A DNA stretch of 58,822 nt from Candidatus Omnitrophota bacterium (GTDB lineage Bacteria; Omnitrophota; Gorgyraeia; Duberdicusellales; 4484-171). Below, piece by piece: positions 28,371 through 49,550 of this stretch (position 1 is the first letter of the stretch; the number at the start of each line of letters is the position of its first letter). The position numbers were made by a program, and so were the translations under genes. The DNA is taken from the NCBI GenBank assembly GCA_018818105.1, contig JAHISK010000130.1, positions 1 to 58,822 of the forward strand, in the 5' to 3' direction. The notes beneath the pieces were generated by a model, which ran no database searches, was not told the origin of the DNA, and saw nothing but the letters and a program-made list of their open reading frames with translations.

Positions 28371-28387
28371 CTGTTTTTCGCTTCCTT

Positions 28388-28640
28388 AAATTCCAAATTA
28401 CAAGCACCAAATTACAAATAAATCTCAATATCCAATGACCTAAATTCAAAACGATACAATAACTTTTCTGTTTCGGTCATTTGGTAATTCGAATTTGTAA
28501 TTTATTTGTTATTTGTAATTTGTTATTTTCATACATTACCCATATATGTTCAAACCAATATAGAAAATATTTATGTTTCGGTCATTTGAATTTGATTTTT
28601 GTAAATTATTTGTTATTTGGTGCTTGTAATTTGTCATTTT
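28388..28640. repeat. Hairpin family A (caaattacaagcaccaaattacaaataaatctcaat...), one left arm and two right arms
   Basis: Matches 45040-45186, 50405-50570, 52316-52385 and 58436-58600. Confidence 0.85.
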
Positions 28641-28664
28641 AATCTTTCTTCTTTCGTCCCTCGC

Positions 28665-30347: not shown

Positions 30348-30497
30348 TTAATTAATCCTCCTTACCTCTTATCTTCCCATCTTTCATATGAAAAAATGGT
30401 CTTTATTACTATTTTTAAAATTATACCATTAACCTCAAAAAACACAATGAAACGTTTAGATTAACGATAATTTTACTGATATTAACAAAATGGCAGG

Positions 30498-32069: not shown

Positions 32070-32148
32070 ATCTCGTATCCTTTCAAATATTCTTCGTCTA
32101 TTATACCATCAAGCTGATGATAGTAACAGTTTTAGCTACCTTTCTTAG

Positions 32149-33366
32149 TTATTTTTTCAAAGCAAACACTGAATGAAGAACTTTCAACGCTGCTTTTCCT
32201 GAACTTTTTTTAACCACGCAAGAAATACTTATTTCCGACGTAGAAATCATATCTATATTAATCTTATTTTTTGCTAAAGCCGCAAAACATTTCGCGGCAA
32301 CGCCGGAATGAGATTTCATGCCAACGCCAACGACAGAAACTTTAGCGATATTCTCATCAGACAACACTTCTCCCGCTCCGACTTTTTGAGCGATTTGTTT
32401 AGATATTCTAATTGTTTTAGATACACTTGATTTAGGTACAGTAAAAGAGATATCCGTTATCTTCTTATGGCTTACGTTTTGAACAATCATATCAACATTA
32501 ATATTCGCCGAAGCTAGTTTATCAAATATCTTGGCAGCAATCCCCGGTTTATCGGAAAGATTACAAACCGTTATTTTAGCTTCATTCTCAGCAAGAGTTA
32601 CGCCTCTTACTACTGACTCTTCGATATAGGGCGCCTTTTCCATAATTATAGTACCCTCCTTTTTAGAAAAACTACTTCGCACATGCAAAGGAATATTAAA
32701 CTTTTTCGCGACTTCAACAGCTCTAGTCTGCATCACCTGCGCTCCTCTAGCGGCAAGCTCAAGCATTTCATCAAAGGTTATATACTCTATTTTCTTCGCT
32801 TCGGGAATAAGCCGCGGATCGGCAGTGTAAATTCCTTCAACATCAGTATAAATCTCACACATATCCGCGCCCGTTGCTACCGCTAATGCCACCGCGCTTA
32901 AATCAGACCCACCTCTGCCTAAAGTCGTTATTTCTAAAGCGGTACTTACCCCCTGGAACCCCGCGATAATAACAACTCTCTTCTGTTTCAGCTCTTTTTT
33001 AATACGTTCAGTCTCAATTTTTAAAATCTTTGCTTGAGTATGATAAGTATCTGTAATTATGCCTATCTGCTGACCGGTAAAAGATATCGCGTCAATACCT
33101 TTCTTATGCAAAGCCATTGCTAAAAGAGCGCTTGAAATCTGTTCTCCCGTAGAAATTAACATATCCATTTCTCTATTAGAAGGAGAAGAATTTATTTGTT
33201 CGGATAAACTAAGCAGATTATCAGTAGTATCGCCCATCGCAGAAACTACTATTACTAACCGATCTCCCCTCTTAACATAGAAAGCAATTCTATTTGCTAC
33301 ATTTTTAAGCTTTTTCACATTAGCTACAGAACTGCCGCCGTATTTCTGTACAATTAATTTACCCAT
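32149..33366 (-). CDS. lysC: Aspartate kinase
   Basis: VQKYGGSSV, TTLGRGGSD, TDVEGIYTADPR, two ACT domains, STSEI. Confidence 0.96.
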   Translation of the reverse strand: MGKLIVQKYGGSSVANVKKLKNVANRIAFYVKRGDRLVIVVSAMGDTTDNLLSLSEQINSSPSNREMDMLISTGEQISSALLAMALHKKGIDAISFTGQQIGIITDTYHTQAKILKIETERIKKELKQKRVVIIAGFQGVSTALEITTLGRGGSDLSAVALAVATGADMCEIYTDVEGIYTADPRLIPEAKKIEYITFDEMLELAARGAQVMQTRAVEVAKKFNIPLHVRSSFSKKEGTIIMEKAPYIEESVVRGVTLAENEAKITVCNLSDKPGIAAKIFDKLASANINVDMIVQNVSHKKITDISFTVPKSSVSKTIRISKQIAQKVGAGEVLSDENIAKVSVVGVGMKSHSGVAAKCFAALAKNKINIDMISTSEISISCVVKKSSGKAALKVLHSVFALKK

Positions 33367-33368
33367 AT

Positions 33369-34559
33369 CTATTTTAAAAAATACTTAAGCAATTCGCTAC
33401 CTTTATTAAAATAAAGTGAACTGCTTTGGGCCTCTACCTCTGAATAACACGAAAAGTTTTCACCCTCTATGCCATCTCCATAAATCAAAAAAGGTACCGG
33501 CTCATCAGTATGCGTCCTTTTAGAAATAGGAGTTGGATGATCCGGCGTAATTAAAATCCGAAAATTAGTATCTTTTAATTTATTCACTAACGTACCGATA
33601 ACTAACCTATCTATCCTTTCCAAACAAATAATTTTCATACGTAAATCCTGATTATGTCCCGCTTCATCGGGAGCTTCTATATGAATAAAAACAAAATCTA
33701 CTTCCTCTAACGCGTCCAATGCTGCCTGCGCTTTCCCCTTATAATTAGTATCATAATACCCTGTCGCGCCACAGACATTCACAACTCTAAACCCAATTAT
33801 TTTACCAATACCTTTTATAAGATCAACTGCTGAAATTACCGCTCCTTCCAACCCAAATTTATCCTTAAAAGACGGTATACTCGGCTTTCCTCCCGCCCCC
33901 CATAACCAAATCATATTAGCCGGCGTCTCTTCTAAATCGACTCTAACCTTATTTATTTCATGCTCTCCTAAAAGAACTTGAGAGCGCCTCATTAAATCAA
34001 CTAAAATATCACTATTACGTCCCCGCGGCAAATGTTTTTTTATGTCTTTGCCTATAATGTCGTGAGGAGGAAAATACTTCACCTTTTCTAACCCCAGTTT
34101 AGAAGCATTACGGTAAACCATAAGGTTACGATAACTTGTTCCATGATAAAATTCGACGTTCTTTGATCCTAAACTCCTGTTAAGATATTCCATAAGAATC
34201 CTTGATTCTCGATCTGTTATATGCCCAGCGCTATAATCAAGAATTTTACCTTCCGACTCAGTAATTAAGTTACACCTAAAAGCTAAATCTCCTTTTTTCA
34301 ACTCAACACCTAAATTCGTTGCCTCCAAAGGACCTCTGCCGGTATAAAATTTTTGTGGTTCATATCCAAATAGAGAAAGATTAGCAACGTCACTTGAAGG
34401 AGTATATCCCGATGGAACAGTCTTAACCCTACCTAAAACACCTTGGGAAGCTAAAGAATCCATAAAAGGAGTCTCGGCCACCTCCAAAGGGGTTTTCCCC
34501 CCTAAAGCTTCAATAGGATAATCACTAGCGCCATCTAAAACTACAACAATGTATTTCAT
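33369..34559 (-). CDS. apgM: Cofactor-independent phosphoglycerate mutase, ApgM/ThrH-like; start revised to ATG 34559
   Basis: DGASD, GKTPLE, SDVANLS, GRGPLEA, HIEAPDEAGH, PDHPTP, HTDEPVP. Confidence 0.9.
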   Translation of the reverse strand: MKYIVVVLDGASDYPIEALGGKTPLEVAETPFMDSLASQGVLGRVKTVPSGYTPSSDVANLSLFGYEPQKFYTGRGPLEATNLGVELKKGDLAFRCNLITESEGKILDYSAGHITDRESRILMEYLNRSLGSKNVEFYHGTSYRNLMVYRNASKLGLEKVKYFPPHDIIGKDIKKHLPRGRNSDILVDLMRRSQVLLGEHEINKVRVDLEETPANMIWLWGAGGKPSIPSFKDKFGLEGAVISAVDLIKGIGKIIGFRVVNVCGATGYYDTNYKGKAQAALDALEEVDFVFIHIEAPDEAGHNQDLRMKIICLERIDRLVIGTLVNKLKDTNFRILITPDHPTPISKRTHTDEPVPFLIYGDGIEGENFSCYSEVEAQSSSLYFNKGSELLKYFLK

Positions 34560-34571
34560 AATAATTGTAAA

Positions 34572-34602
34572 AGGGTCAAGGGGCAAGGGTCAGGGGTCAA
34601 GG
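34572..34602. repeat. Heptamer array gggtcaa/ggggcaa; reverse-complement family at 14050-14065 and 14143-14154
   Basis: agggtca aggggca agggtca ggggtca agg. Confidence 0.75.
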
Positions 34603-34817
34603 AAAAAAAACAGATAATTATTCAGCCTTTCTCCTTACTGCCTTGACAGATACAAAAACCGCATTTTATGGTCTGATTAAGAGTTTAATACAAACCATAT
34701 CTTCTTGCAAGATTTTTTTAAAATGATATATTAGTAGATTGGAGATGGCAGATTACAGATTGCAGATAATTTCATCTCCCATCTCGAATCTGCAACCTAT
34801 TAATAAATAATAGTAAT

Positions 34818-35579
34818 ATGATAAAACAAGGTGATTTAGTATTCATTTATAAAGACGACCGCAGAAACTTCTTAATTAAAGTCCAAGGAGGACGTCTGCA
34901 TACAGACAAAGGATTTATAGACCTTACCGCGGTTATAGGAAAACAATTTGGCGAAAAAGTAGACACTAACTTAGGTGAACCCTTCTATCTGCTAAAACCT
35001 TACCTTCATGAAATGATTATGAAGGTCAAACGCCAAACCCAAATTATCTACCCTAAAGATATTGGAATAATACTTACCCGCGGCCACATTTTTCCCGGAG
35101 CACGAGTAATCGAATCAGGAATCGGAAGCGGCGCGTTAACTACCGCCATGGCAAACTTTGTAAGGCCAACCGGCAAAGTTTACAGTTACGAGCGCAATGA
35201 AGACTTCTTAAAAAACGCGAAAAAAAATCTGGAAAAAAATGGACTAGCCGAATGGGTTGAATTTAATCATCAGGAAATTACTGATGAATACCCCCAAAAA
35301 GAAGTTGATTTTATAATGATAGATATTGGAAGCCCTTGGACATTAATTGACGCGGCATATAAATCACTTAAAGGCGGATGCCGCCTAGCCACTATTTGCC
35401 CAACATTTGAACAGTTAACTGAAACCGTTTTTACTTTAGAAGAAAAAGGATTCATAAATATTGAAACTATGGAAGTTCTTCTGCGGCGTATTCTCGTAAG
35501 ACGCGGCAAAACCCGCCCCGAACAAAAAATGCCGTCCCACACCGGATGGCTGGTATTCGCCACAAAAATCCTACGATAA
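34818..35579 (+). CDS. trmI: tRNA (adenine-58-N1)-methyltransferase
   Basis: RQTQIIYPKD, ESGIGSGALT, SYER, D...PW, PTFEQ, HTGWL. Confidence 0.93.
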   Translation: MIKQGDLVFIYKDDRRNFLIKVQGGRLHTDKGFIDLTAVIGKQFGEKVDTNLGEPFYLLKPYLHEMIMKVKRQTQIIYPKDIGIILTRGHIFPGARVIESGIGSGALTTAMANFVRPTGKVYSYERNEDFLKNAKKNLEKNGLAEWVEFNHQEITDEYPQKEVDFIMIDIGSPWTLIDAAYKSLKGGCRLATICPTFEQLTETVFTLEEKGFINIETMEVLLRRILVRRGKTRPEQKMPSHTGWLVFATKILR

Positions 35580-35608
35580 CTCAACGTAATTTTTATAAAC
35601 TCTAAATA

Positions 35609-35657
35609 GGACATTTCTATTTTGCTAAAAAAGGGACATTTTTACTTTGCCTTGACA
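35609..35657. mobile_element. Solo IS end resembling an IS1202/ISNCY-type terminal repeat
   Basis: Two tandem GGACATTT(C/T)TA(T/C)TTTGC boxes ending in TTGACA (TGTCAA on the other strand); no transposase nearby. Confidence 0.6.
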
Positions 35658-35662
35658 CTATA

Positions 35663-35702
35663 TACAAATTTGTATTGACAGTACAAATTTGTATGGTATA
35701 TT
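35663..35702 (+). promoter_or_regulatory. Sigma70 promoter (TTGACA-N16-TATATT, extended TG) with two perfect TACAAATTTGTA palindromes flanking the -35
   Basis: Palindromes at 35663-35674 and 35682-35693; ATG 6 nt after the -10. Confidence 0.75.
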
Positions 35703-35708
35703 TGAATT

Positions 35709-36893
35709 ATGAGATACCTAAAAAGAAACATAGAAAACCAAATCAGCCATTACCTTAAAATCTTTCCCGCCGTAGGCATAACCGGCCCCCGCCAATCAGG
35801 AAAATCAACAACTCTAAAAACAGTTTTCGGCAATAAATATACTTATCTAAGCTTTGATGATCCACTGAATGTGGATTTTTTCAATAACGATCCCCGCGGT
35901 TTTATTAAAGAATATAAAAAACACATCATTTTTGATGAAGTCCAACGCGTTCCTCAAATTTTTAACTATCTAAAAATTGAAATTGATAACCATCGACAAA
36001 ATTATGGACGTTATATCCTAACCGGCTCCAGTCAATTTAACCTTTTAAAATCTATAACCGAATCCTTAGCCGGCCGCATAGGGTTATTATCACTTCTGCC
36101 ATTGGAACTAAAAGAAACTCCCCCTTCTTTACGAAAATCACACATTCTATTAGGAGGATATCCCGAATTAATAACGCGTGAGTATAAAGATACAAAAGAG
36201 TGGTACGGCGCCTATTTACAAAACTATATCGAAAGAGATGTTAGAACCTTACATAATATAGGTAACTTAAGAGATTTTCACCGGCTGATTATGCTTTTGG
36301 CGGCGCGGGCATCAAAAGAATTAAATATGTCCGGCTTAGCCAAAAAAATCGGCGTTACCGTAAAAACTATCCAAAGTTGGATATCAATATTAGAAGCAAG
36401 TTATATAATTTTCCTCCTGCCTTCTTATCATAATAATCTAGGCAAACGTATCGTTAAGCGCCCTAAATTATGTTTTTACGATACCGGTCTTATCTGTTAC
36501 TGCACAGGCATAGAAAATACGAACCTCCTACGCCGGGGACCTCTTGATGGACAAATATTTGAAAACTACGTAATAGCTGAAATCAAAAAAAACATTATGC
36601 ATTACGGAAAAAATCAAGACCTCTATTATTTTAGAGATAACTTAGGATTAGAATGTGATTTAATTATTGAAGATAAAGATAACCATCAATTATCATTTAT
36701 CGAAATAAAAAGCAATGATACGCCTAAAAGAGAAATGATTACCCCTATAAAAATCTTAATCGAAAAATACCAACAAAGCGAATTATCTTCATTATATAAG
36801 ATTCAAGGTTATCTAATCTATCGCGGCAGCCAAAATGGCAATTTCAAAGAAAACATAAAATACATCAACTACCAAGACTTTATCTTAACCTAA
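35709..36893 (+). CDS. AAA_14 ATPase with DUF4143 and a C-terminal PD-(D/E)xK-like motif
   Basis: GPRQSGKST, FDEVQ, LTGSS, ESLAGR, GGYPE, DTGL, FENYV, ECDLI...IEIKS. Confidence 0.9.
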   Translation: MRYLKRNIENQISHYLKIFPAVGITGPRQSGKSTTLKTVFGNKYTYLSFDDPLNVDFFNNDPRGFIKEYKKHIIFDEVQRVPQIFNYLKIEIDNHRQNYGRYILTGSSQFNLLKSITESLAGRIGLLSLLPLELKETPPSLRKSHILLGGYPELITREYKDTKEWYGAYLQNYIERDVRTLHNIGNLRDFHRLIMLLAARASKELNMSGLAKKIGVTVKTIQSWISILEASYIIFLLPSYHNNLGKRIVKRPKLCFYDTGLICYCTGIENTNLLRRGPLDGQIFENYVIAEIKKNIMHYGKNQDLYYFRDNLGLECDLIIEDKDNHQLSFIEIKSNDTPKREMITPIKILIEKYQQSELSSLYKIQGYLIYRGSQNGNFKENIKYINYQDFILT

Positions 36894-37070
36894 AGCTATT
36901 TAATTACAAAAAATGACTCCCCACACTAGCTAGCTAGTATTCGCTACCAAAATTCTGCGATAATTCAAAAAAACAGTTCCTTACACTTCTATTAGTTATT
37001 ATTTAATTAATTATATTTTCACTAATATTCTATCCCTATATACTCTTCCCTATATACTAACGACTAAATA

Positions 37071-38087
37071 CTATACACTAAACATTCCCGCTATAGCTTC
37101 TCCACAATGTCCACATTTACCACCCTCTATATGATTTTGTTTTATGGAAAATGACATTCTTTCTATAACCATACCGGAACAAGAAGGGCAATAAGTGTTT
37201 TCTCCATAATCAGTATGAACATTGCCAAGATATACATACTTTAACCCTTTCTCTTTACCAATCAGATAAGCTTTTTCCAACACAGAAAGAGCAGTAGCGA
37301 TTCTATGATCAAACTTATAACTAGGATGAAAACAAGAAATATGCCACGGAATATTCTTATCTAACGCCGCGATAAAGGCGGCGATAGCAAATAACTCACT
37401 ATCACTATCGTTCTGACCAGGAATAACTAAAGTAGTCAACTCAACCCAAATGCCAAGTTCCTTCATTAAGGTAATAGTCTCTAACACCGGCTTAAGCTTC
37501 GCCTTACAAATTTTATGATAGAATTCTTCTCTAAACGATTTTAAATCCACATTGGCAGCATCAAGATAAGGACTTATAGATTTTAACGCGTCCTTACTAA
37601 TATATCCGTTAGTAACAAAATTATTATACACCCCCTTATCCTTGGCGAGAACCGCGCAATCATAGGCAAACTCAAAATAAATAGTTGGTTCTGTATAGGT
37701 ATAAGAAATACTCTGACACTGGCGCGACTTCGCTTGACGAACTAAATCCTTTGCCGAAACACTAACGGTTTTCATTTGTAACTCTTTAGCTTCTTGAGCC
37801 TGAGAAATCTGCCAATTTTGACAAAAGCCGCACTTGAAATTACACCCTATCGAGGCGATAGAATAAGCGGTTGTGCCGGGGAAAAAATGGAAAAGCGGCT
37901 TCTTCTCAATAGGATCAATGTTAAAAGCAACTAATTGCGCGTAATTTAAAGAATATAGCGCCCCATCTTTATTAAGGCGCGCTCCACAAATTCCAACTTG
38001 TCCGTTTTTTATATTACAAAAATGATTACACAGAAAACAATCCACATTTTTGTCATCTGATTTTTTATAAAACAAAGCCTCTTTCAT
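37071..38087 (-). CDS. amrS: AmmeMemoRadiSam system radical SAM enzyme
   Basis: CFLCNHFC, DPIEKKPLFHF, GCNFKCGFCQNWQISQ, YTYTEPT, NVDLKSF. Confidence 0.93.
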   Translation of the reverse strand: MKEALFYKKSDDKNVDCFLCNHFCNIKNGQVGICGARLNKDGALYSLNYAQLVAFNIDPIEKKPLFHFFPGTTAYSIASIGCNFKCGFCQNWQISQAQEAKELQMKTVSVSAKDLVRQAKSRQCQSISYTYTEPTIYFEFAYDCAVLAKDKGVYNNFVTNGYISKDALKSISPYLDAANVDLKSFREEFYHKICKAKLKPVLETITLMKELGIWVELTTLVIPGQNDSDSELFAIAAFIAALDKNIPWHISCFHPSYKFDHRIATALSVLEKAYLIGKEKGLKYVYLGNVHTDYGENTYCPSCSGMVIERMSFSIKQNHIEGGKCGHCGEAIAGMFSV

Positions 38088-38106
38088 TTCAAGCCAATTT
38101 TTATTT

Positions 38107-38230
38107 AGTTCGGAGTTATGAGTTCGGAGTTCATAGATATTTCTACGAACTACGAACTACGAACTACGAACTACGAACTACGAACTACGAACTACGAACT
38201 ACGAACTACGAACTACGAACTACGAACTAC
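38107..38230. repeat. Perfect (CTACGAA)x12 array (38143-38226, plus CTAC) with a short inverted left arm agttcgg/agttatg
   Basis: Counted directly. Confidence 0.95.
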
Positions 38231-38262
38231 TATAATTATATATTTGATTTTTGTAAAATTCA

Positions 38263-38931
38263 ATGCTAATATATTTTGTGAGCAAACGAAATCAACTTTT
38301 TCCTTCTTATGAATATTTAGATTCACAAAGACTAAAAGATACTTTTTTCTCTCCGCCGCGAAAAAAAACATTTTCTAAACGTGTCGTGTTTACTACCTTA
38401 ACCGTTATTTTTTTATCAATCATTACTATTTTACTTATGTTCAATTATGCCATTATACTTATTCCCCGGAAAAACATTAGCAAAAACACCTTTTCTCTTA
38501 TCAAAAACAAAAAATTGGCTTCTGTTTATGCTCTTACCAAAGATACTAATTTACTCGCGAAAAGAGGACCTTTTCTTCATTTAATTATTCCACCTCAAGA
38601 AAAAAACGGCATACAGGTAAATCTCAAAAAATCAATTAATTTAAATACCAACACACTAAATCTTTCCCTAAAAAAACCGCCGGGCACGATAAAAATAGGC
38701 TTAATAATAAAAGATGTATTCTACCATTCAAACGCGCGCGCCCCTTTTATTATCGATATCGCGGATAATCACTGTCCCTTAACACAAATCCCTATAGCCT
38801 TTACATCTAATCTAATAAAAAACACAAACTTATCTAAAATAGACCAAATAACAGTATACTTTTACCGCCAAGATACAGCCCAAGAATCTTGGGCGTTAAT
38901 TAGCGATCTTGTATTGGTTAAAAATAATTAA
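38263..38931 (+). CDS. Single-TM protein with a possible carbohydrate-binding (CIA30/CBM11-like) domain; start uncertain
   Basis: One TM helix; C-terminal beta-rich segment with QIPIAF...NLSKIDQITVYF. Confidence 0.55.
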   Translation: MLIYFVSKRNQLFPSYEYLDSQRLKDTFFSPPRKKTFSKRVVFTTLTVIFLSIITILLMFNYAIILIPRKNISKNTFSLIKNKKLASVYALTKDTNLLAKRGPFLHLIIPPQEKNGIQVNLKKSINLNTNTLNLSLKKPPGTIKIGLIIKDVFYHSNARAPFIIDIADNHCPLTQIPIAFTSNLIKNTNLSKIDQITVYFYRQDTAQESWALISDLVLVKNN

Positions 38932-39014
38932 ATCCAAAATTGGTCGAAAAATTTATTAATTAAGATTTGACTAACTCTTAATATTTGTGATAATTTAATT
39001 ATGGAGGTGACATA

Positions 39015-40037
39015 ATGAAAATTATATCTGTTGCCAATCAAAAAGGCGGATGCGGAAAAACAATAACAGCTGTAAATCTTTCTGCCGCGTTAAGTAAGAA
39101 AGGGCATAAAGTTCTACTTATAGACTTTGATCCACAAGCTCATGCCACATTTGCTCTAGGAGGGAAAAGTAATTTTACAATAACTGATATTTTAGAAAAA
39201 ATTCATAATAAAGAAGTTCCTGATTTTAATGAAGCTATAACACCGATTTCCGATAACTTTTATTTTATCGGGGCAAGTATCGGATTAATAGCGTTGGAAC
39301 ACCATCTAGCATTAAGCAAAAATAAGCTAACGTTTTTATCATCCGCTCTTAAAGGTCTCCCTTCTAATTATGATTACTGCATATTAGATTGCCCCCCCAA
39401 CTTAGGAGTATTAACGTTAAACGCCCTCAACGCCAGCGCCTACTGCCTCACGCCTATAAGCATTTGCGATTTTTCCCTGCACGGCTTAAAAATATTAAAA
39501 AATATTTTTATCATGCTTAAAGAATTTAATAACCGCATGCCTACCCCTCTTTATCTTCTCAATCAACTCGATAAACGCTCACGCTTCTCAAAAGACTTTA
39601 TCGAACGAGCAAAAAGCACTCTTGGAGATTTCCTTCTTAATACTTCCATAAGAACAAATATCCATCTAAGAGAAGCCGCCGCCGCTGGTAAAGATATAAT
39701 CAATCATAAACCCGCCTCCCGAGGCGCCGAAGATTTTATGAATTTAGCGCGAGAAGTGGAAAACATCACAACCTCTACATCTTGGACCACCATTTTTTTA
39801 AAAGACAAAAAGTTTCAGGATGTCCATGTCGTAGGCGATTTTACTAACTGGGAAAAAGATGACCAATACAAATTGAAAAAAATCAGTAAAGATATATGGA
39901 GTATAAAAATCCCTTTAGGAAAAGGAAAATACCGCTATAAATTTGTGGAAGGAAAAGAATGGTTTACTGATCCCCATAATAGCCTTACAGAAAACGACTC
40001 TTTCGGAGGAAGGAACTCTCTACTTTACGTGGAATAA
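39015..40037 (+). CDS. ParA/Soj-family ATPase fused to a C-terminal glycogen-binding CBM48/AMPK-beta-like domain
   Basis: NQKGGCGKT, IDFDPQAHAT, LDCPPNLG; C-terminus VHVVGDFTNW...W.IKIPL.KGKYRYKFV..KEWFTDP.N...DSFGGRNS. Confidence 0.88.
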   Translation: MKIISVANQKGGCGKTITAVNLSAALSKKGHKVLLIDFDPQAHATFALGGKSNFTITDILEKIHNKEVPDFNEAITPISDNFYFIGASIGLIALEHHLALSKNKLTFLSSALKGLPSNYDYCILDCPPNLGVLTLNALNASAYCLTPISICDFSLHGLKILKNIFIMLKEFNNRMPTPLYLLNQLDKRSRFSKDFIERAKSTLGDFLLNTSIRTNIHLREAAAAGKDIINHKPASRGAEDFMNLAREVENITTSTSWTTIFLKDKKFQDVHVVGDFTNWEKDDQYKLKKISKDIWSIKIPLGKGKYRYKFVEGKEWFTDPHNSLTENDSFGGRNSLLYVE

Positions 40038-40064
40038 TGACGCTATCGCATAATAGCACCAGCG

Positions 40065-40154
40065 CCTGATTACACCGATTTAAGAAATGATTACAGAGAT
40101 AAAAAACAAAGTATTTTCAATCGTCGCAATCTATGTTTAATCACTGTAATCAGG
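40065..40154. repeat. CCTGATTACAC...TAATCAGG palindromic element, second copy at 44664-44714
   Basis: Shared cctgattacac, agataaaaaac, tttcaatc and taatcagg blocks. Confidence 0.7.
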
Positions 40155-40886
40155 AACTGTCGTGTTATTGCGCGATCGTTCCTCGAATTCCCGTTTTATG
40201 ACAATTTTACCTACTAACAAAATAAATTCTAAACGTAAAGGTAATCTTTTTTCTTTATCCAACCATAAATTAAATTTTTTATCGCCTCGACCTTGCAGAA
40301 AATACGTTTCTTTTTCTTCGCTATTAACTTTTAATGATCTATGAGATACTATTTTTATTACTACCTTTTGCGTAGGCAGATTAAATCTACGCGTTTCTCC
40401 AAATTCTAAATCTATTCCTGTTGGGAAAAAATATAGAAGCGCTAATATATTATGAATTGGCTTATCCACAAAAAGAACCTCTTCTTTCTTAGTATCATTA
40501 TTTCTTACTATTTTTACAACTCCCTGATCCTGATCATAAAACTCCTGAATCAATTCCTTTTTACCAAAAAAGACAACATCTCTTTCTACTTTAAGCGGAA
40601 GACCTGTCTTTACATCAATAAAAATCTTCTCTTTACTCCGCAAATTTAAAAGTTCAAGAATATTGGCATCAGAATTAATACCAAGAACATGAGAGTTCTT
40701 GTTAGAAACCTCCTCCTGACCTAAATACTCCCACTCTATATGGCCTACAGGAATACCATTAAAATACACTCCATAGGCTAATTTGTCTCTACCGCCAAAA
40801 CGCTCTTGGATATCTTCACCGAATCCCGCCACGCGAAAAAACACTGACAAAATCGAAAATAAAATTAGCTTCTTCCAACCTTTCAT
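40137..40886 (-). CDS. Secreted DUF3108-like protein
   Basis: Signal peptide; beta-rich, with TGLPLKVER and LWLD...RLPLR. Confidence 0.6.
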   Translation of the reverse strand: MKGWKKLILFSILSVFFRVAGFGEDIQERFGGRDKLAYGVYFNGIPVGHIEWEYLGQEEVSNKNSHVLGINSDANILELLNLRSKEKIFIDVKTGLPLKVERDVVFFGKKELIQEFYDQDQGVVKIVRNNDTKKEEVLFVDKPIHNILALLYFFPTGIDLEFGETRRFNLPTQKVVIKIVSHRSLKVNSEEKETYFLQGRGDKKFNLWLDKEKRLPLRLEFILLVGKIVIKREFEERSRNNTTVPDYSD

Positions 40887-40965
40887 ATAATTATCTTTGG
40901 TGTACGCGCGAAATCAACAATTATCATTTATCAATCTTCATTTATCATTTTAAATTTAAAATTAA

Positions 40966-42870
40966 TTATCCCCCCGCCCCTACTAACTGTCTGATTTCTT
41001 CTATCTTCTCAAAAGCGGCTTGCTCTCCCTTTCTTATAAACTGCTCAGCTCTATCAAATTCCATCCACCCTCCCACACCACCAAAATCAGGATGAATAAC
41101 CACATCACTGATTTTCAAAGCCCTTTCAATAAACTCCCGTTGCATTGTTTCAATACTTCCAAAAATAAAATCTAAAATATGAAATTTCCTATCACCTTTA
41201 TACCCTCTGATAATCTCTTCTTTCGATGGAGTAATGTTAACAGCAATTATTTTATGAGCTCCGTAATTAAGCAATATCCTTGTAGGAAGAGGATTTAATA
41301 TTCCTCCATCCATAAGAATATCTTTTTTAAACAGCACCGGTTCAAACATTCCCGGCATCGCGCAACTTGCCGCGACAGCTTTATATAGTAACCCATCTTC
41401 CAAAATTTTTGTTTCCCTTCTTATAAAATCAAAAGCAACTATCTTAAGAGTACGCTTTAAATCATAAAAACTCATATCGCCAAAAATACTTTTCAAAATA
41501 TTCTCTAGACGTTTAGCCCTTAAAACCCCCTTAAAAGGGAGAGATATCCCCGTAAAAGGGAATAGACTAAGTTTCTTACTTACCCATTTCACGGCCTTCT
41601 CCATTTCCGAAATTTCAAAACCCGCGGCCCATAACGCTGCCACCAACGCCCCCATACTTGACCCACAAACAACATCAATCGATACATTATTATCTCGCAG
41701 AACTTTTAAAACTCCTATATGAGAAAAAGCGTAAGCGCCGCCGCTGCCTAAAGCTAAGCCAACGACAACCTCTCCTATCTGCCGGGAAATTCTTCTAACC
41801 GCTTTAGAGTAATCATCTACTTTACAAGACGACAACGTGGCATAAATAGGAAAATCTACTAACTTTATTTTTTCTTCCCGGGAAAACTCAACTTTATCAA
41901 ACTCGCTTACAATTAACCTTATTTTGTCCTTATTAAAAGGGTTGATACTCTCTAATTCTTTTATAAAAACGTCGGCCGCTTTCAATTCCTCTTTATTAAG
42001 CGAGAAAATCAAATGCAAAAAGTTAGCCGTATATACAAAATCTGTTAAATTCTGATGTGAAGACGAAGGAACTTCATAAAGAATAAAATGATAATTTTCT
42101 GAAAGAAAATTCAACAACGCCCCAAACCTCGCTGAATCTAATGTTTTTACTAAAAAATAATCAACCTTATCCTTGATAACATACGCGTTAAAACCATCTT
42201 CTGAAACCACGCTTAAGTCCAAAACTTTCTTTGTTTTTTTAACGGGACAGTTGAGACCTCCCTCTACAATTAAATCCTCTAACGAAAATTTACTCTCAAA
42301 AGACAATTCCAAACAAACAACTTCTTTCTTTGTTTGCTCTTTTAACTGCGCGCCTAAATTATACATATACGTTGTTTTCCCCGACGATCGGGGCCCTAAT
42401 ATAGCTATTCTCCTACATTGAAATATCTTTTTAGGATGAGTACGCCGTTTAACTCTCTGAGAAAAAAGGCTAAAAAACTCCGCGAAAAACAGAGGGTACC
42501 CGTTAAGGAATTTCTTAAATTTATCCTTCTCGACCCTCAAAACAAACGATGTCTCAATTGACTTAGTAGTTACTGAATGCGCCTCCGCGGTCAAAATAGA
42601 TATCATGCCAAAGCAAGTACCCCGTTTAAGCAATTCTATTTCAGATTCTACACCCTCAAAATTCGTTATAGCGACAACTCTTCCACTTAAAAGAAGATAA
42701 AAATAATCAGGCGGGTCTGATTCGTTATAAATAACATCTCTATTACTATATTCCTTAACTTCACACAACCTTATAAACTTATCAATTTCTCTATCTTTTA
42801 ATTTATTAAAAGGCGGGATATTACTGACTATGAATTTTATTTCTTTTGTGTCCATATTAATACAGACCAT
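40966..42870 (-). CDS. cNMP-binding + P-loop (MinD/CpaE-like) + patatin phospholipase (NTE-like)
   Basis: cNMP domain (FYLLLSGRV, GTCFG), GPRSSGKTT, patatin motifs LALGSGG, GSSMG, DGG. Confidence 0.85.
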   Translation of the reverse strand: MVCINMDTKEIKFIVSNIPPFNKLKDREIDKFIRLCEVKEYSNRDVIYNESDPPDYFYLLLSGRVVAITNFEGVESEIELLKRGTCFGMISILTAEAHSVTTKSIETSFVLRVEKDKFKKFLNGYPLFFAEFFSLFSQRVKRRTHPKKIFQCRRIAILGPRSSGKTTYMYNLGAQLKEQTKKEVVCLELSFESKFSLEDLIVEGGLNCPVKKTKKVLDLSVVSEDGFNAYVIKDKVDYFLVKTLDSARFGALLNFLSENYHFILYEVPSSSHQNLTDFVYTANFLHLIFSLNKEELKAADVFIKELESINPFNKDKIRLIVSEFDKVEFSREEKIKLVDFPIYATLSSCKVDDYSKAVRRISRQIGEVVVGLALGSGGAYAFSHIGVLKVLRDNNVSIDVVCGSSMGALVAALWAAGFEISEMEKAVKWVSKKLSLFPFTGISLPFKGVLRAKRLENILKSIFGDMSFYDLKRTLKIVAFDFIRRETKILEDGLLYKAVAASCAMPGMFEPVLFKKDILMDGGILNPLPTRILLNYGAHKIIAVNITPSKEEIIRGYKGDRKFHILDFIFGSIETMQREFIERALKISDVVIHPDFGGVGGWMEFDRAEQFIRKGEQAAFEKIEEIRQLVGAGG

Positions 42871-42958
42871 AGACTATCGACTATAGACCATCGTCTACCA
42901 AGCACCAATTCTTCTTAAATATCTTATCTATAGTCTATGGTCAATAGTCTATAGTCGA
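42864..42958. repeat. Heptamer hairpin (agactat/atagtct family)
   Basis: agaccat agactat cgactat agaccat / atagtct atggtca atagtct atagtcg; contains the GH1 stop codon. Confidence 0.8.
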
Positions 42959-44187
42959 TTCTCTCTACATATCTTAGCATAAGTATTAGCGAAAGGTTTA
43001 ATTTTTCTCTCAAAATTATTATAATCTACTTCCAGCAACCCAAATCTAGGACCGAATCCTTTATCCCATTCAAAATTATCCAGTAAAGACCACCACAAAT
43101 ACCCTCTTATATCTAAGCCTTCCTCAATTGCTTTAGATACCATTTTAAGGTGCGCGATTAAATACTCTTGATAAAACGCGTCATTACTTTCGGCAGTACC
43201 ATTTTCCGTAATTATTATTGGTAAAGAGTACTTTTTCAATTTCTTAAGAACCCTATAAAACCCTTGAGGGGAAACATACCACCCCAAATAATTACGGTGT
43301 TCTTTATGCGTTATATGCGCGCACTCATCTCCAAACGGCCATTTAGCTTTTACATATTCTTTACAGTAGTAATTTACTGCCAGATAATCTAAGCATCGCT
43401 TCTTACTTAAATAATCATACACAGGAAAATTAAAAACAGTTTCTCTAATAAAAGCATAAAAATTATTCACCCCAAAATTATAGCTGGGACACGGAGAAAA
43501 ACCGCGCATATTTTTTGACAAGGAAATTTCAGGAGTTATCTTCTCTCCTTCATATATTCTTTTTATTTCACTATACCCTTTAATATAAGCGGCAATAATA
43601 TTCTTTAAAACCTTTAAAGCGAGTTTAAAATCTTTACTTCCCGGAGGCCAAATCCCGAGAACAAAACTATTATAAATATAAACTAAAGGCTCATTAAAAA
43701 TAAGCCAATACTGAACTTTACCTTTCAACTCTTTGACTAGACGCCTAAGATATTTTAGAAAAAAATCAATATTTTTAGAATCAGCCCACCCCCCTTTATC
43801 GCTAAACCAAATAGGATTAGTAAAATGATGCAGTGTTATAAAAGGTGTTAACCCCTCATCTAAAAGAGAATCAACTACTTGACTATAATGATTTAATTCT
43901 TGATCTGAAATGACGAGTTCTCGCGGATTAATTCGTGACCACTCTATAGAAATTCTTAAAGAATTTAAATTAAGGCTGTTGGCTAACTGAAAATCTTTCT
44001 TAAATAACTGATAATGATTACAAGCATCACAGGCCCCTTCTAAGCCTTTATCTTTCTCCCATAAATACCAGTCAGAATTATGATTTTTACCTTCACATTG
44101 ATAACTAGAAAGGGCGGCTCCCCAGAAAAAATTAGGCGGCAATTTTACATCCATTGATATTATAAAATATAAAATTCCAAATAACAA
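42949..44187 (-). CDS. Glycoside hydrolase family 1 (start probably ATG 44154)
   Basis: FFWGAA.SSYQCEG, RISIEWSRI, TLHHF, NEP, ITENG, WSLLDNFEW. Confidence 0.93.
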   Translation of the reverse strand: MLFGILYFIISMDVKLPPNFFWGAALSSYQCEGKNHNSDWYLWEKDKGLEGACDACNHYQLFKKDFQLANSLNLNSLRISIEWSRINPRELVISDQELNHYSQVVDSLLDEGLTPFITLHHFTNPIWFSDKGGWADSKNIDFFLKYLRRLVKELKGKVQYWLIFNEPLVYIYNSFVLGIWPPGSKDFKLALKVLKNIIAAYIKGYSEIKRIYEGEKITPEISLSKNMRGFSPCPSYNFGVNNFYAFIRETVFNFPVYDYLSKKRCLDYLAVNYYCKEYVKAKWPFGDECAHITHKEHRNYLGWYVSPQGFYRVLKKLKKYSLPIIITENGTAESNDAFYQEYLIAHLKMVSKAIEEGLDIRGYLWWSLLDNFEWDKGFGPRFGLLEVDYNNFERKIKPFANTYAKICRENRL

Positions 44188-44193
44188 TTTCCA

Positions 44194-44592
44194 TTATAGC
44201 CTAGAAACAACTTCTAAAGCTTTATTGTTATCACTAGAAGAAAAAATAATATTCGCGTCTACTCCGGTTCTAACCGTAGTCCCATAAATATGGATAAGAT
44301 TGATATTAGCATCCCTCAATTTAGCGGCAAGATTATAAAGATACCCTACCTCATCAGCCATCTCAACAATAATAACTTCTTTACTATCAACCGTTCCCAT
44401 ACTCTTTAAGACACATCGCGCGCCGGCATTGTCTGAAGTAACTAATCTAAAAAATGCCTTATCTGCTACAACATAAGCGCTTATTGCTCGAACATTAATG
44501 TTAGCTTCCTTCATCAATTTAGAAACCGCGCTTAATTGTCCAACTTTATTCTCTGTTGAAAGAAATAACTCCTGACCTTTAACTGCTTTCAT
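44194..44592 (-). CDS. Tandem ACT-domain protein
   Basis: ENKVGQL...ANINVRAI; DEVGYL...ANINL..IY. Confidence 0.85.
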   Translation of the reverse strand: MKAVKGQELFLSTENKVGQLSAVSKLMKEANINVRAISAYVVADKAFFRLVTSDNAGARCVLKSMGTVDSKEVIIVEMADEVGYLYNLAAKLRDANINLIHIYGTTVRTGVDANIIFSSSDNNKALEVVSRL

Positions 44593-44739
44593 ACCTAATC
44601 TCCAACTAAATATATTATGCCGCTATTACGTAATAACAGAATCGTCTGACTCAAGCGATTAATCCCTGATTACACAGATAAAAAACCTAATGGTTTCAAT
44701 CTGTATAATCAGGGACTATTAAATTTCGCGACAGTTCTA

Positions 44740-44970
44740 TTATTTCTTTCCTCTCGACACAATTTCTTTTTCTGCCTTAACCCAATGGCTAAAATCTTGA
44801 CCTTGCGGCCGACCCTGTTTTTCCCATAAAAAGTATGCTTGTTCTCTTATCATTTGGTTTAATTTAGCTTCGTTAATACCATGATGCGCAGCCTTAATAT
44901 CAGAAGTTCCTTTTTTACTACCTTTAGATACCCTTGAAAAAATACCCCTTTTTTTATCCGTAGCGCCCAT
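44740..44970 (-). CDS. DUF2934-domain protein; start revised to ATG 44970
   Basis: IREQAYFLWEKQGRPQGQDFSHWVKAE; GGAGG RBS. Confidence 0.85.
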   Translation of the reverse strand: MGATDKKRGIFSRVSKGSKKGTSDIKAAHHGINEAKLNQMIREQAYFLWEKQGRPQGQDFSHWVKAEKEIVSRGKK

Positions 44971-45005
44971 AACCCACCTCCTTATCTTAACTTTGGTATT
45001 ATTTA

Positions 45006-45186
45006 CAGCCAAAGGCTGACCAGCCTCCGGCTGGAAATCTCAAATCACAAGCACCAAATTACAAATAAATCTCAATATCCAATGATCAAAATTCCAAACG
45101 ATACGAAAACATTAATGTTTTGGTCATTTGAAAATTGAAATTTGGAGCTTATTTGTTATTTGGCGCTTGTAATTTGTTATTTTCAT
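45006..45186. repeat. CAGCCAAAGGCTGACCAGCCTCCGGCTGG double hairpin plus a family A hairpin
   Basis: The same 29-mer (1 mismatch) occurs at 58448-58476. Confidence 0.85.
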
Positions 45187-45209
45187 CCAAAAATGAATAT
45201 AGTTACTTA

Positions 45210-47252
45210 CTACCCCACAACAAAACTAAGTTTGACCCCCCTCTTTATATCTTTAATTATAAAAAGAACTATTATCTGCTGATACACCTTCTCAAATCCT
45301 GATTCAGAAGAAGAAACCGAATATAGCGGCGCGGTATAAATATCAGCTTTATCAAATTTAAAGTTTAAAGTTATATCTTTATAATGATCGTCTATTTCAA
45401 AAGAAGAAATATCTTTAGTTACTGTCGGAGCCATCAAAGAAGTTTGCCCATTTTTTTCTTTTTTAAAAATATCTTTTGGCGATTCAAGGGCCAAATTAAA
45501 TTCTATACCAAAATTATGATTATTTAAACCTTTTTTTTCATTTTTTCCAAAAAATTTATATTCAGCGTCAAACCCACATCGAGAAGAAAACTTTACAATT
45601 TTTGAAAAGTCGATAGTTTGATCCTGATAAGACCAATCTAAAATAATTTCTTTTTTACTTTTTCTGACATTCAAATCATAAAGACTATTACTAAAAGTTG
45701 ATATACCTTTTTGTCCCACCAAATCTTCTACAGTTAAATCTTTACTTAAAAGATGATCTAACAAACAAAGACGCTCGTATTTATCATAGCTCAAAAACCG
45801 CCGTAAATTATCCTCTTTAGACGTAACTATATCATGAATTGTACTAACACACCCTTTATGAGCAACTTTATCGGTAATCTTTCTATGATATGATTCAACT
45901 CTGCGTGTAATAGTATTAACCAAATTAAGCGCGGGTTTACGCAAACTCAACTCTGCCAGACTGCCGCCCCTACAAGAAAAACAACAAATAATTTTACGAT
46001 TTTTCAGCAAAACTTCTTCTACTCCATCAAAATCAAAATCTCTTCGTTCCACACAAATTTCGCTTTTCGTAAACTTCTTATCAAACAAATTTTCAGCTGT
46101 AATCAATTTTTCATAAATTGACGCTCTTATATGCCCTAAATAAAACCCTCCAAAAACACCATGCCAATACCCGCAATTAGTCTGAGCCTTCCATAAATTC
46201 AAAAACATATCTTTATCTTTATTAAAATCTGTATGTTTATTTATTTTCTCACTCACCGACAGCATTCTTTTATGCATATAATTAAGCCTATTATATTTTT
46301 TGTAAAAGTTACGAAAAAATCCGCCCCTAACAAAATCTTTGAACTTATGATACTTATGATGCGATTTTAAAAAGTTATTTAAATCCTCAAAGACAGAAAA
46401 ATCCCCGGGTTCCAACACCCACTCGCCCATCTCTTCATAGGAAGCTGTAGGCAAATATATAAGCCCGCGAGAAGAAAACTTCTCTAACGCCTTCGCGGGA
46501 GTAATCGTTTCAATAGAAGTTGATTCCCGCAAAAGAGAAAAGAATTTATGAAGCCACCCCTTTTCATAAACCCAATCAAAAGTATGCGGCCACATGCCAA
46601 ACTTTTCTCCATCATCAAAAAGAGTGACTAATACATCTCCTTCTTTTTTAAAACTGTTAAGAAGATCTATTGCTTCAGAGGCTTGCGAAAATGGAATTTT
46701 ATACCTTAACGATTTACTAATAGGGAACACAGAAATCGGTTTAGCCTGATCTTCAGTGGTATAATATCCGAAAAATTCTTCTTTATTACATCCGGCATAA
46801 CGAAAATGCGTATCATCAAGAAATGTGTATTTCAAACCGCAACTATTAATAATCCCCGCTAAATTTGGTTCCCATACCCTCTCTGCTAACCAAAAACCGC
46901 CAGGCTTAAGATTAAACTTTTTCTCAATAAAATCATTCATTAACCTCACTTGGCCTACTTTATCTTTATCATTAATCAACGGCAAAATCGGTTCATAATA
47001 CCCTCCGCTAATGACTTCAACCTGCCCATTCTTAACTAATTCATTAAGAATGGTTAGATACTCTTTACCATTATCCTTCATCCAGTCATAAAGAGGCCCG
47101 CTTGTGTGAATACTACATTTTATTTTAGGAAACTGCGCTAACATCGATAAAAAAGGCAAGTAGCAAGTTTTATAAGCTTGCTGAAAAACATGCTCAAAAT
47201 TACCTACCGGCTGATGATTATGTACCCCAAATAAAAAATATACTTTACCCAT
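45210..47252 (-). CDS. GH57 alpha-amylase/4-alpha-glucanotransferase (DUF1925/DUF1926 type)
   Basis: HNHQPVGNF, GGYYEPIL, WLAERVWEP, DDGEKFG.WP, SYEEMGEW, WHGVFGG.Y. Confidence 0.93.
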   Translation of the reverse strand: MGKVYFLFGVHNHQPVGNFEHVFQQAYKTCYLPFLSMLAQFPKIKCSIHTSGPLYDWMKDNGKEYLTILNELVKNGQVEVISGGYYEPILPLINDKDKVGQVRLMNDFIEKKFNLKPGGFWLAERVWEPNLAGIINSCGLKYTFLDDTHFRYAGCNKEEFFGYYTTEDQAKPISVFPISKSLRYKIPFSQASEAIDLLNSFKKEGDVLVTLFDDGEKFGMWPHTFDWVYEKGWLHKFFSLLRESTSIETITPAKALEKFSSRGLIYLPTASYEEMGEWVLEPGDFSVFEDLNNFLKSHHKYHKFKDFVRGGFFRNFYKKYNRLNYMHKRMLSVSEKINKHTDFNKDKDMFLNLWKAQTNCGYWHGVFGGFYLGHIRASIYEKLITAENLFDKKFTKSEICVERRDFDFDGVEEVLLKNRKIICCFSCRGGSLAELSLRKPALNLVNTITRRVESYHRKITDKVAHKGCVSTIHDIVTSKEDNLRRFLSYDKYERLCLLDHLLSKDLTVEDLVGQKGISTFSNSLYDLNVRKSKKEIILDWSYQDQTIDFSKIVKFSSRCGFDAEYKFFGKNEKKGLNNHNFGIEFNLALESPKDIFKKEKNGQTSLMAPTVTKDISSFEIDDHYKDITLNFKFDKADIYTAPLYSVSSSESGFEKVYQQIIVLFIIKDIKRGVKLSFVVG

Positions 47253-47313
47253 TTTTAAATTTATTACGGGCGCGCCCCTACCTTTTTATACGATAAATAA
47301 CCTTTGGCATAAT

Positions 47314-47494
47314 TAAAGAGATAACAAAAATCTCTTTTGCGCGCGTCTTGATGTCCGGATGGAGAACCGCGAGTGAAGCCGATTTTATCGGCTGAACCGC
47401 GAGCTCTTTTGCTTTGATTATTATGTTTATTCATTATCAATACGGTTTTAGGACTCATACGCGAAGCAAAAGGGCTATTTTTGTTATCTCTTTA
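47314..47494. mobile_element. 181-bp MITE-like element with perfect 18-bp TIRs
   Basis: TAAAGAGATAACAAAAAT ... ATTTTTGTTATCTCTTTA; internal AGCCGAT-TTT-ATCGGCT hairpin between GAACCGCGAG direct repeats. Confidence 0.8.
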
Positions 47495-47524
47495 CCACCA
47501 CTAAATGAAAAACACACCCATCCC

Positions 47525-49120: not shown

Positions 49121-49332
49121 TATATTGTCTAAAGTCTCCTAAAATCCCAAATAACAATTTCCAAATTCCAATCATCAATAACCAATTACCAAACTTACAA
49201 TTTATTCTTAATTTCATTGAATTCTTTGGTTATTTGAATTTGGTTATTGGTCATTGTTTGGTTATTGTTTCTTGTATCTTGGTTATTTCTTCCTTATTAA
49301 TCATTATTTGATGCTTGGAATTTGTTATTTTA
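49121..49332. repeat. Heptamer hairpin (taaccaa/ttggtta type) with a degenerate TATTGTC left end
   Basis: caaataacaatttccaaattccaat... / ttggttattggtcattgtttggttattgtttcttgtatcttggttatt. Confidence 0.75.
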
Positions 49333-49334
49333 CT

Positions 49335-49550
49335 CTATTTGCCGTAGTCTCCTTTTCGGCGAAGTATATCCTTCAATTCTTCCATCGATTCAGCCGCTTT
49401 ACAAATATTACGCTCAATATCTTTTAAGGCGTCATTTATATCGCTTCGGCTGGTTAAAGATACCTCTCTGTACTTTAATGTGCCGGCTATAACATTAACC
49501 GAATTTAGATAATTAAAAATATCATGAAATAAATCAGGTATCTCTGACAT
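49335..49550 (-). CDS. Small stand-alone HisKA/DHp-like protein
   Basis: H-box-like LFHDIFNYL in a two-helix 71-aa protein; overlaps the response regulator stop. Confidence 0.55.
   Translation of the reverse strand: MSEIPDLFHDIFNYLNSVNVIAGTLKYREVSLTSRSDINDALKDIERNICKAAESMEELKDILRRKGDYGK

Follow-up and report, generated by a model that had tools for sequence, protein, structure and literature searches.

What might an ATPase of the ParA family be doing with a domain of the kind that binds glycogen? The question is raised by positions 38263..40037 of a 58,822-nucleotide stretch of DNA from a Candidatus Omnitrophota bacterium (contig JAHISK010000130.1, positions 1 to 58,822; the whole stretch is referred to below as the window). 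The initial annotation had described this span as a ParA/Soj ATPase fused to a CBM48 domain. The span is real, but it holds two genes on the plus strand, the first encoding a membrane protein of 222 amino acids (aa), here called the partner, and the second encoding the 340-aa fusion protein, here called ParA-CBM48. ParA/MinD ATPases organise chromosomes, plasmids, carboxysomes, chemoreceptor arrays, and division sites, and glycogen is the commonest bacterial carbon store; we know of no ParA/MinD system for glycogen, and none that positions glycogen was found in a literature search. Our tentative answer, held with slightly less than even confidence, is that the two genes form a conserved Omnitrophota module that couples cytoplasmic glycogen to an ATP-driven ParA switch and tethers or distributes glycogen particles. 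Among the 301 genomes sampled across the phylum, the module was never found without glucan genes, an observation that is new here.

A ParA ATPase fused to a CBM48 domain

The ParA-CBM48 gene (39015..40037, plus strand) encodes a Soj-type ParA ATPase domain (residues 1 to 254, 39015..39776) followed by a CBM48 module of the AMPK-beta type (residues 256 to 340, 39780..40034). The initial annotation had put this architecture forward for confirmation with hidden Markov models (AAA_31 and AMPK1_CBM), and both families scored above their Pfam cut-offs. AAA_31 covers residues 1 to 172 (E 5.6e-45, 153.9 bits, cut-off 27), and CbiA also matches the ATPase (73.2 bits, cut-off 25.4). The deviant Walker A motif reported earlier, KGGCGKT, is intact (residues 10 to 16, 39042..39062), and K10, G11, G12, K15, T16, D37, D39, D125, and R188 are invariant in 38/38 relatives, the set including the acidic residues of Walker A' and Walker B (D37, D39, and D125). 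ParA-CBM48 is thus a predicted ATPase with the full set of catalytic residues, showing no sign of being a dead enzyme. An AlphaFold 2 (AF2) model based on the 38 relatives had a predicted local distance difference test score (pLDDT) of 89.0 and a predicted template modeling score of 0.83, and the closest solved structures were a ParA (8ray_B, E 5.7e-34), Soj of Thermus thermophilus (1wcv, 2.8e-29), and Soj of Helicobacter pylori (6iub, 1.7e-28). A tyrosine kinase of the Wzc/CapB type (BY-kinase) was rejected as an alternative identity for the ATPase, with eps_fam at 31.9 bits against a cut-off of 108 and a Wzc match in the Protein Data Bank (PDB) of only 5.7e-4.

The basic patch with which T. 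thermophilus Soj binds DNA is described as R182, R194, R208, and R211 (PMC6393308). In an alignment with 1wcv, R188 of ParA-CBM48 falls on R182 and is R in 38/38 sequences, and K200 is K or R in 32/38. The position of R208 is occupied by T214, and that of R211 by H217 (H in 14, K in 12, and others in 12 of 38), the residue being K in a more distant clade (12/38). Two basic residues stand beside the patch, namely R213 (R in 26, H in 12) and R219 (R or K in 38/38). Binding of ParA-CBM48 to the nucleoid is therefore possible, to judge from the residues kept.

At the C terminus, AMPK1_CBM matches residues 268 to 339 (E 2.5e-9, 37.7 bits, cut-off 26.8) and CBM_48 matches at 23.1 bits (cut-off 22.4), and AMPK1_CBM was carried by 19/19 related proteins scanned. 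A whole-protein search of the PDB listed no CBM48 chains; the C-terminal 93 residues, searched separately, found the carbohydrate-binding modules (CBMs) of AMPK beta2 and beta1 (best E 3.7e-4), LSF1, SEX4, pullulanases, and GlgB. Eight residues are invariant in 38/38 sequences (W279, Y308, W316, D319, P320, N322, G331, and S335), and position 309 is K in 26 and R in 12 of the 38. W279, K309, and W316 align on Trp, Lys, and Trp of the AMPK beta1 CBM and are taken as the equivalents of W100, K126, and W133 because both the alignment and the beta1 spacing of 26 and 7 residues fit the published numbering. In AMPK beta1, W100G and K126Q are reported to abolish glycogen binding and W133L to weaken it (PMC6274970). 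The AMPK-beta/CBM48-like domain proposed at the outset thus holds, with both Pfam families above cut-off and the binding residues invariant, and on this alignment it keeps the residues that AMPK beta uses for glycogen. It is also as slow in evolution as the ATPase domain, the mean pairwise identity among the 38 sequences being 0.464 for the CBM48 domain and 0.473 for the ATPase domain.

The two domains belong together. Of the 120 best protein clusters listed, 119 contain both PF13614 and PF16561, at about 340 aa, so the fusion is not a product of chance, and an error of gene calling or assembly was ruled out as its source.

ParA-CBM48 is distinct from the partition ATPase of the host genome. 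In this 2.03-Mb, 92%-complete genome, a canonical parA on another contig (C8:10989-11513) is followed directly by the sole ParB_N match of the genome (C8:11909-12190), and a third ParA-like gene lies on contig C19. The earlier remark that no parB is adjacent stands, as no ParB_N was found near the ParA-CBM48 gene in the window neighbourhood. The NCBIfam model for partition proteins, NF041546 (ParA_partition), scored 95.4 bits, below its cut-off of 180. Because a separate parA-parB operon is present on C8, ParA-CBM48 is an extra ParA, and its assignment as the chromosomal Soj was rejected.

A membrane partner with a conserved cytoplasmic helix

The partner gene (38263..38931, plus strand) encodes a bitopic membrane protein and ends 83 bp before the ATPase gene, which is preceded by GGAGG at 39003..39007; the gene callers of protein collections begin the partner at residue 6 (217 aa). 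Searches of the 222-aa protein against Pfam, NCBIfam, and PADLOC gave no match. A same-strand homologue of 190 to 246 aa nevertheless lies directly 5' of ParA-CBM48 in 17/19 related loci, and the two genes overlap by 4 bp in L008 to L011. Word-based searching recovered 7 partner proteins, compared with thousands for the ATPase, and a profile search recovered 883 representatives at E ≤ 1e-3 and 298 at E ≤ 1e-10. The homologues share a plan of a short conserved N-terminal helix, a stretch rich in K and R, one hydrophobic helix, and a C-terminal domain rich in beta structure. In an AF2 model based on 56 sequences (pLDDT 86.7), these correspond to a helix at residues 16 to 29 (38308..38349) with the juxtamembrane K/R-rich stretch after it, a single transmembrane (TM) helix at residues 39 to 65 (38377..38457), and a beta-sandwich at residues 76 to 220 (38488..38922).

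The sandwich resembles CBM11 and CBM30. Foldseek against the PDB returned the CBMs of GH50 agarases (E 9e-7), CBM30 (1wzx), CBM16, CBM11, and CBM29; long multidomain proteins in the partner profile search had Pfam CBM30 or CBM_11 where the profile matched, and a structure search of the ESM Atlas gave leads similar to those of Foldseek. The initial annotation had described the upstream product as a TM protein with a possible carbohydrate-binding fold, and both features were recovered.

The partner appears to lie in the membrane with its N terminus inside and its C terminus outside, because K and R are in excess on the N-terminal side of the TM helix: they are more numerous there than on the C-terminal side in 49 of 56 sequences, equal in 7, and fewer in none (means, 5.55 and 2.73). 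This places the helix at residues 16 to 29 in the cytoplasm and the CBM-like domain in the periplasm. The N-terminal helix is also the best-conserved part of the protein (mean pairwise identity 0.389, compared with 0.249 for the C-terminal domain and 0.18 for the TM helix), and L24 within it is nearly invariant among the 56 sequences. Since it is both cytoplasmic and best conserved, this helix, with the basic stretch behind it, is the candidate tail for contact with ParA. A complex prediction with two copies of ParA-CBM48, ATP, Mg, and partner residues 1 to 45 gave a median score of 0.22 against a mark of 0.32 and is neutral on binding. The inward-facing N terminus and the conserved cytoplasmic helix are new findings for this protein.

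A further small protein, of 132 to 144 aa, is encoded 3' of ParA-CBM48 in the more distant clade (L012, 1733-2167; L013, 11154-11552; L024, 11119-11523; L067, 11103-11507; L080, 4026-4430). Its N-terminal half is rich in lysine, and its C-terminal part is a barrel like domain 2 of EF-Tu, with Pfam GTP_EFTU_D2 below its cut-off. It may be a third component of the module, as its position suggests; one query gave no match in the genome of the window.

Linkage of the module to alpha-glucan genes

In 8/19 related loci, genes for a glycoside hydrolase of family 57 (GH57), the partner, and ParA-CBM48 lie in this order on one strand, with GH57 immediately upstream. Among the matches listed, 42 further genomes from six families (f15, f22, f35, f37, f43, and f3) have a same-strand GH57 gene 1.7 to 3.7 kb upstream, and a genome from the window's own order (G300) is among them. 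The GH57 protein encoded at 47525..49120 in the window is 36 to 40% identical (tblastn) to the upstream GH57 of L013, L024, L041, L066, L067, L069, L079, and L080, and its nearest solved relative is the GH57 amylopullulanase of Aquifex (8zyi/9jlq, E 1e-83), an enzyme described as hydrolysing glycogen (PMC12106739). No signal peptide was found in this GH57, and the catalytic motif begins within its first 20 residues; the module-linked GH57 is accordingly predicted to be cytoplasmic. A secreted GH57 neighbour was rejected, as the protein is without a signal peptide.

The distribution of the module was followed with a profile (A3) covering the domain junction and CBM48, applied at E ≤ 1e-10 to 301 genomes sampled evenly across Omnitrophota. 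It matched 260/301 genomes, a number that counts any CBM48 of the subfamily and is an upper bound for the fusion because one of five spot-checked genomes had standalone CBM48 only; the corresponding counts were 212/248 for high-quality genomes and 175/207 for genera. Among the 150 matches listed, 138 lay in open frames of 342 to 464 aa, that is, in the fusion. The spot check, made in another class, found a full-span frame of 366 to 384 aa in 4/5 genomes, one of them with an internal stop, and only standalone CBM48 genes in the fifth. Matches were all or none by family (for example, 15/15 in f4, 17/17 in f5, 41/41 in f15, and 0/5 in f8).

Co-occurrence with GH57 and GlgA was counted by hand over genomes G001 to G300, with GlgA matches taken at E ≤ 1e-30. 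In the class to which the window belongs (192 genomes), the A3 profile matched 0/8 genomes without GH57 (families f1, f19, f46, and f9) and 160/184 with GH57. Over the phylum, it matched 0/13 genomes lacking both GH57 and GlgA (six families) and 259/287 with at least one of them, counts in which related genomes are non-independent samples. All 11 genomes with an A3 match and no GlgA match have GH57. The initial annotation had tied the architecture to glycogen metabolism and to glg and GH57 genes; the association was found both in gene order, with GH57 upstream in the 8 loci and 42 further genomes, and in the distribution over the phylum.

GlgA, GlgP, and three GH57 matches are present in the host genome itself, and Omnitrophota metagenome-assembled genomes are reported to carry glycogen synthesis genes (PMC8542988). 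In a different class of Omnitrophota, glgA has directly beside it a gene for a freestanding 106-aa CBM48 of the same subfamily (G040:C1:138656-138940 next to 137894-138616; G020:C52:69869-70126 next to 69068-69790). Separately, GH57 and GlgA matches in family f5 lie a few hundred bases apart in one open frame of about 1025 to 1046 aa (G055:C95, G073:C46, G008:C14, G230:C24, G267:C33, G271:C1, G287:C1, G173:C33, G185:C49, and G161:C8), which suggests that this family may encode a fused GlgA-GH57 protein.

Proposed function and its weaknesses

We propose that ATP-bound ParA-CBM48 would form the sandwich dimer typical of the ParA family and so display two CBM48 modules, which as a pair could grip glycogen particles. 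The dimer would dock on the membrane through the cytoplasmic tail of the partner, on the nucleoid through the partly kept Soj basic patch, or on both. The tail of the partner would trigger ATP hydrolysis and with it release, and the outcome would be that glycogen particles are tethered, spread, and held within reach of the co-encoded cytoplasmic GH57. The periplasmic domain of the partner might tune the tethering. A bolder form of the proposal, which we regard as doubtful, is that the module is the first bacterial machine dedicated to glycogen particles, in which a ParA carries its own cargo domain, the periplasmic lectin domain of the transmembrane partner reads the envelope or the surroundings, and the store is tethered, distributed, or released in response; in that case an immune label, discussed below, would be wrong at least for Omnitrophota.

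Several observations weigh against a role of the module in positioning glycogen. Bacterial glycogen usually consists of many small soluble particles, and positioning may matter little for them. The module is dispensable for glycogen metabolism, because 24/184 GH57 genomes of the class lack it, including the whole families f8, f11, and f13, which have GlgA. Conversely, 13 genomes of other classes have an A3 match and no GH57, and GlgA is present in 5/5 of those checked. Joint loss of the module and the glucan genes is found mainly in small genomes (0.7 to 1.6 Mb) and could reflect general gene loss. In the window, the module lies 8 kb from GH57 and on the opposite strand, so that the two are not adjacent there. 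The ATPase gene may have a promoter of its own, to judge from a promoter-like site in the 83-bp gap (TTGACT, 16 nt, TG-GATAAT; 38967..38994, plus strand; 10/12 matches), which is a lead only, as the region holds 13 such sites compared with 10.1 +/- 3.1 in shuffles and hence no excess. Exact basic residues are kept at only 2/4 positions of the Soj DNA patch. The large domain of the partner is periplasmic and thus would have no contact with cytoplasmic glycogen. The partner's rate of evolution is, moreover, roughly double that of the ATPase, as is frequent in conflict genes; over the same 136 genome pairs, identity is 0.246 for the partner and 0.491 for the ATPase, with the partner lower in 136/136. 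Finally, no experimental study of any ParA-CBM48 family member was found in the literature.

Alternative explanations

The architecture has been catalogued before. A preprint by Li, Burroughs, and Aravind (bioRxiv, 22 Oct 2026, 10.64898/2026.10.19.760177) describes a "CBM-containing system" in branch ConB5, in which a ParA is fused to a C-terminal AMPK1_CBM and is optionally preceded by a single-TM protein bearing another, rapidly evolving periplasmic CBM. Domain architecture and upstream TM-CBM gene exactly match the pair in the window, which is therefore a member of a described architecture. The preprint, which is computational only, calls the system sporadic and its CBM rapidly diverging and gives it an immune role. 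Clusters of the ESM Atlas with ParA and AMPK1_CBM have Thermodesulfobacteriota, Myxococcota, or Planctomycetota as their commonest phylum, and the Atlas also places the fusion in Acidobacteriota. The Omnitrophota system differs from the ConB5 description in being near-core, in having a CBM48 conserved like the ATPase domain, in being operonic with GH57, and in being absent where glucan genes are absent. Within Omnitrophota, the grounds of sporadic occurrence and of a fast ATPase-borne CBM do not apply, given the 260/301 genomes matched and the domain identities of 0.464 and 0.473, and this head-to-head evidence against a sporadic, fast-evolving, immune description of the system in this phylum is new here.

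In the immune role, the CBMs would detect infection-linked carbohydrates or the depletion of polysaccharide, upon which ParA multimerisation would limit infection by phages or other mobile elements. We consider this improbable for the module in the window, even though the preprint describes exactly this ParA-CBM architecture with an upstream single-TM CBM protein and the partner is indeed fast evolving. Candidate defence genes also lie nearby. An AAA_14 + DUF4143 ATPase (35709..36893, plus strand), 1.4 kb upstream of the partner gene, matches the PADLOC candidate PDC-S01 at E 3e-99; it was not found in the related loci L007 to L011 and for that reason looks like a local insertion. Downstream by 0.9 kb, a 634-aa protein with a cyclic-nucleotide-binding domain and a patatin phospholipase domain (Pfam; 40966..42870, minus strand) recurs next to the module in 2/5 close-clade loci (L008, 11041-12927; L011, 11250-13118), and its similarity to phospholipase effectors of the cyclic-oligonucleotide-based antiphage signaling system is weak (E 6.4e-10 and 7.4e-13). 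In L084, ParA-CBM48 is followed by an open reading frame with a deaminase domain that matches the PADLOC dCTPase model (E 5.6e-34). Set against these is a near-core gene that is all or none by family and whose sugar-binding residues are invariant in a CBM48 that matches the ATPase domain in its conservation. PADLOC gave no match for 20 ParA-CBM48 proteins or 18 partners scanned, although PADLOC 2.0, from 2023, cannot include models for a system proposed in 2026; at E ≤ 1e-10 it matched only 5/142 locus proteins, all generic (two UvrD-type helicases, a giant kinase, a patatin, and a deaminase). The common neighbours are housekeeping genes (such as MnmG, LpxB, a lipid A acyltransferase, Rho, IspF, and TrkH). 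L084 itself is a high-GC record labelled Anaerolineales, outside the phylum, with an intact 383-aa ParA-CBM48 (9986..11137), no upstream TM partner, and the cytidine/dCMP deaminase domain at the C terminus of the frame at 10881..12476; it may represent the other variant of the ParA-CBM system in the preprint.

A closer rival keeps the link to glycogen and dispenses with positioning. The module could be a regulator or scaffold of glycogen metabolism, in which the periplasmic CBM-like domain senses a glycan of the envelope or from outside and acts through the cytoplasmic tail on the ParA switch. Seated on glycogen by its CBM48, the switch would gate access of GH57, GlgP, or GlgA to the polymer, and the module would thereby signal across the membrane to carbon storage. 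We think this unlikely, but it draws on the identical linkage to glucan genes that lies behind a positioning role. The partner has the look of a sensor, its periplasmic CBM fold being joined by one TM helix to a conserved cytoplasmic helix; AMPK beta is reported to use its CBM for regulation and not for transport (PMC6274970), and regulators recur near the module (an ACT-domain protein and a GAF-HD protein). On the other side stands a fast-evolving periplasmic domain whose glycan ligand is putative. Characterised ParA/MinD ATPases, moreover, act by binding and patterning surfaces and not by gating enzymes. The partner's periplasmic CBM would also suit an organiser of envelope polysaccharide like BcsQ of cellulose synthase, in which ParA would localise or activate an export complex through the bitopic partner and CBM48 would hold the nascent glucan. 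BcsQ, likewise a ParA/MinD ATPase, is associated with the membrane and with a polysaccharide process, and Pfam CBP_BcsQ matches ParA-CBM48 at 41.2 bits (cut-off 21.3). Alginate_exp porins, Poly_export/SLBB proteins, Wzz/GNVR proteins, MGDG-synthase-like glycosyltransferases, and lipid A genes are repeatedly found at most a few kilobases from the module. These envelope genes differ between clades, however; the NCBIfam BcsQ model scores 79.7 bits, below its cut-off of 157.85, and no bcs or glucan synthase genes are in the operon. The linked enzyme is predicted to act on cytoplasmic alpha-glucan, and the phyletic pattern tracks GH57 and GlgA, which makes an envelope role very improbable.

Gene context in the window

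The carbohydrate genes reported earlier within 10 kb of the span, namely two GH57, a GH1, and a DUF2934 gene, are all placed by Pfam on the minus strand 3 to 9 kb downstream of ParA-CBM48: GH1 at 42949..44187, DUF2934 at 44740..45012, and GH57 at 45210..47252 and 47525..49120. The last is of the type encoded immediately upstream of the module in other Omnitrophota; here it forms part of the context, not of an operon with it. The 90-aa DUF2934 protein, encoded between the gene for an ACT-domain protein and the two GH57 genes, has a weak match (E 0.0013, below cut-off) to DUF7067 of alpha-glucan water dikinase.

The divergent intergenic region between an AmmeMemoRadiSam radical S-adenosylmethionine gene (minus strand, start 38087) and the partner gene holds a perfect tandem repeat of a heptamer (CTACGAA x 12.6, 38143..38230), and a weaker repeat (AGTTCGG x 3.7) is found at 38107..38132. 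No heptamer tandem repeat was found in 17 related loci. Slippage in the CTACGAA repeat could alter promoter spacing. Another perfect short tandem repeat (TATCTT x 7) is located at 14193..14234. GC skew was strongly negative in 29/29 2-kb windows over positions 1..58000 (-0.11 to -0.35; G+C, 32 to 41%), and between 26 and 50 kb the majority of genes are on the minus strand.

Comparison with known systems

The family offers a simple, testable case, in which a cargo domain is fused to the motor in about 340 residues, with one small partner and clear point mutants. For the uncultured phylum Omnitrophota it is a near-core, lineage-typical module of cell biology. One architecture with two readings, immunity and storage housekeeping, also bears on how far defence calls based on a fast-evolving neighbour are to be trusted.

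ParA-CBM48 shares with the chromosomal Soj/ParA proteins of ParABS systems (8ray, 1wcv/2bek, and 6iub/8jmj) the deviant Walker A motif with its signature Lys, Walker A', and Walker B. It differs from them in having no adjacent ParB or parS, in its added CBM48, and in keeping only part of the DNA patch. With AMPK beta, SEX4, and LSF1 (4y0g, 1z0m/1z0n, 3nme, and 8j5d), the C-terminal domain has in common the Pfam families and the Trp-Lys-Trp positions. In those proteins, CBM48 is carried on a kinase scaffold or a glucan phosphatase, whereas here it is a putative glycogen binder on a P-loop ATPase.

By analogy, the module most likely works like the orphan ParA/MinD systems that position cargo, among which are also PpfA/TlpT and PomZ. 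The carboxysome-positioning pair McdA/McdB (PDB 6noo match, E 1.6e-15) has in common with it a ParA-type ATPase that is not reserved for DNA, a dedicated partner gene, and a non-DNA cargo. In McdAB-like positioning, the partner is expected to mark the cargo and to stimulate the ATPase by an N-terminal peptide; the Omnitrophota partner has a conserved cytoplasmic helix with a basic tail but is bound to the membrane and not to the cargo. In McdAB the partner binds the cargo; in the Omnitrophota module the putative cargo domain lies in the ATPase itself, and the partner is a membrane anchor with a domain in the periplasm.

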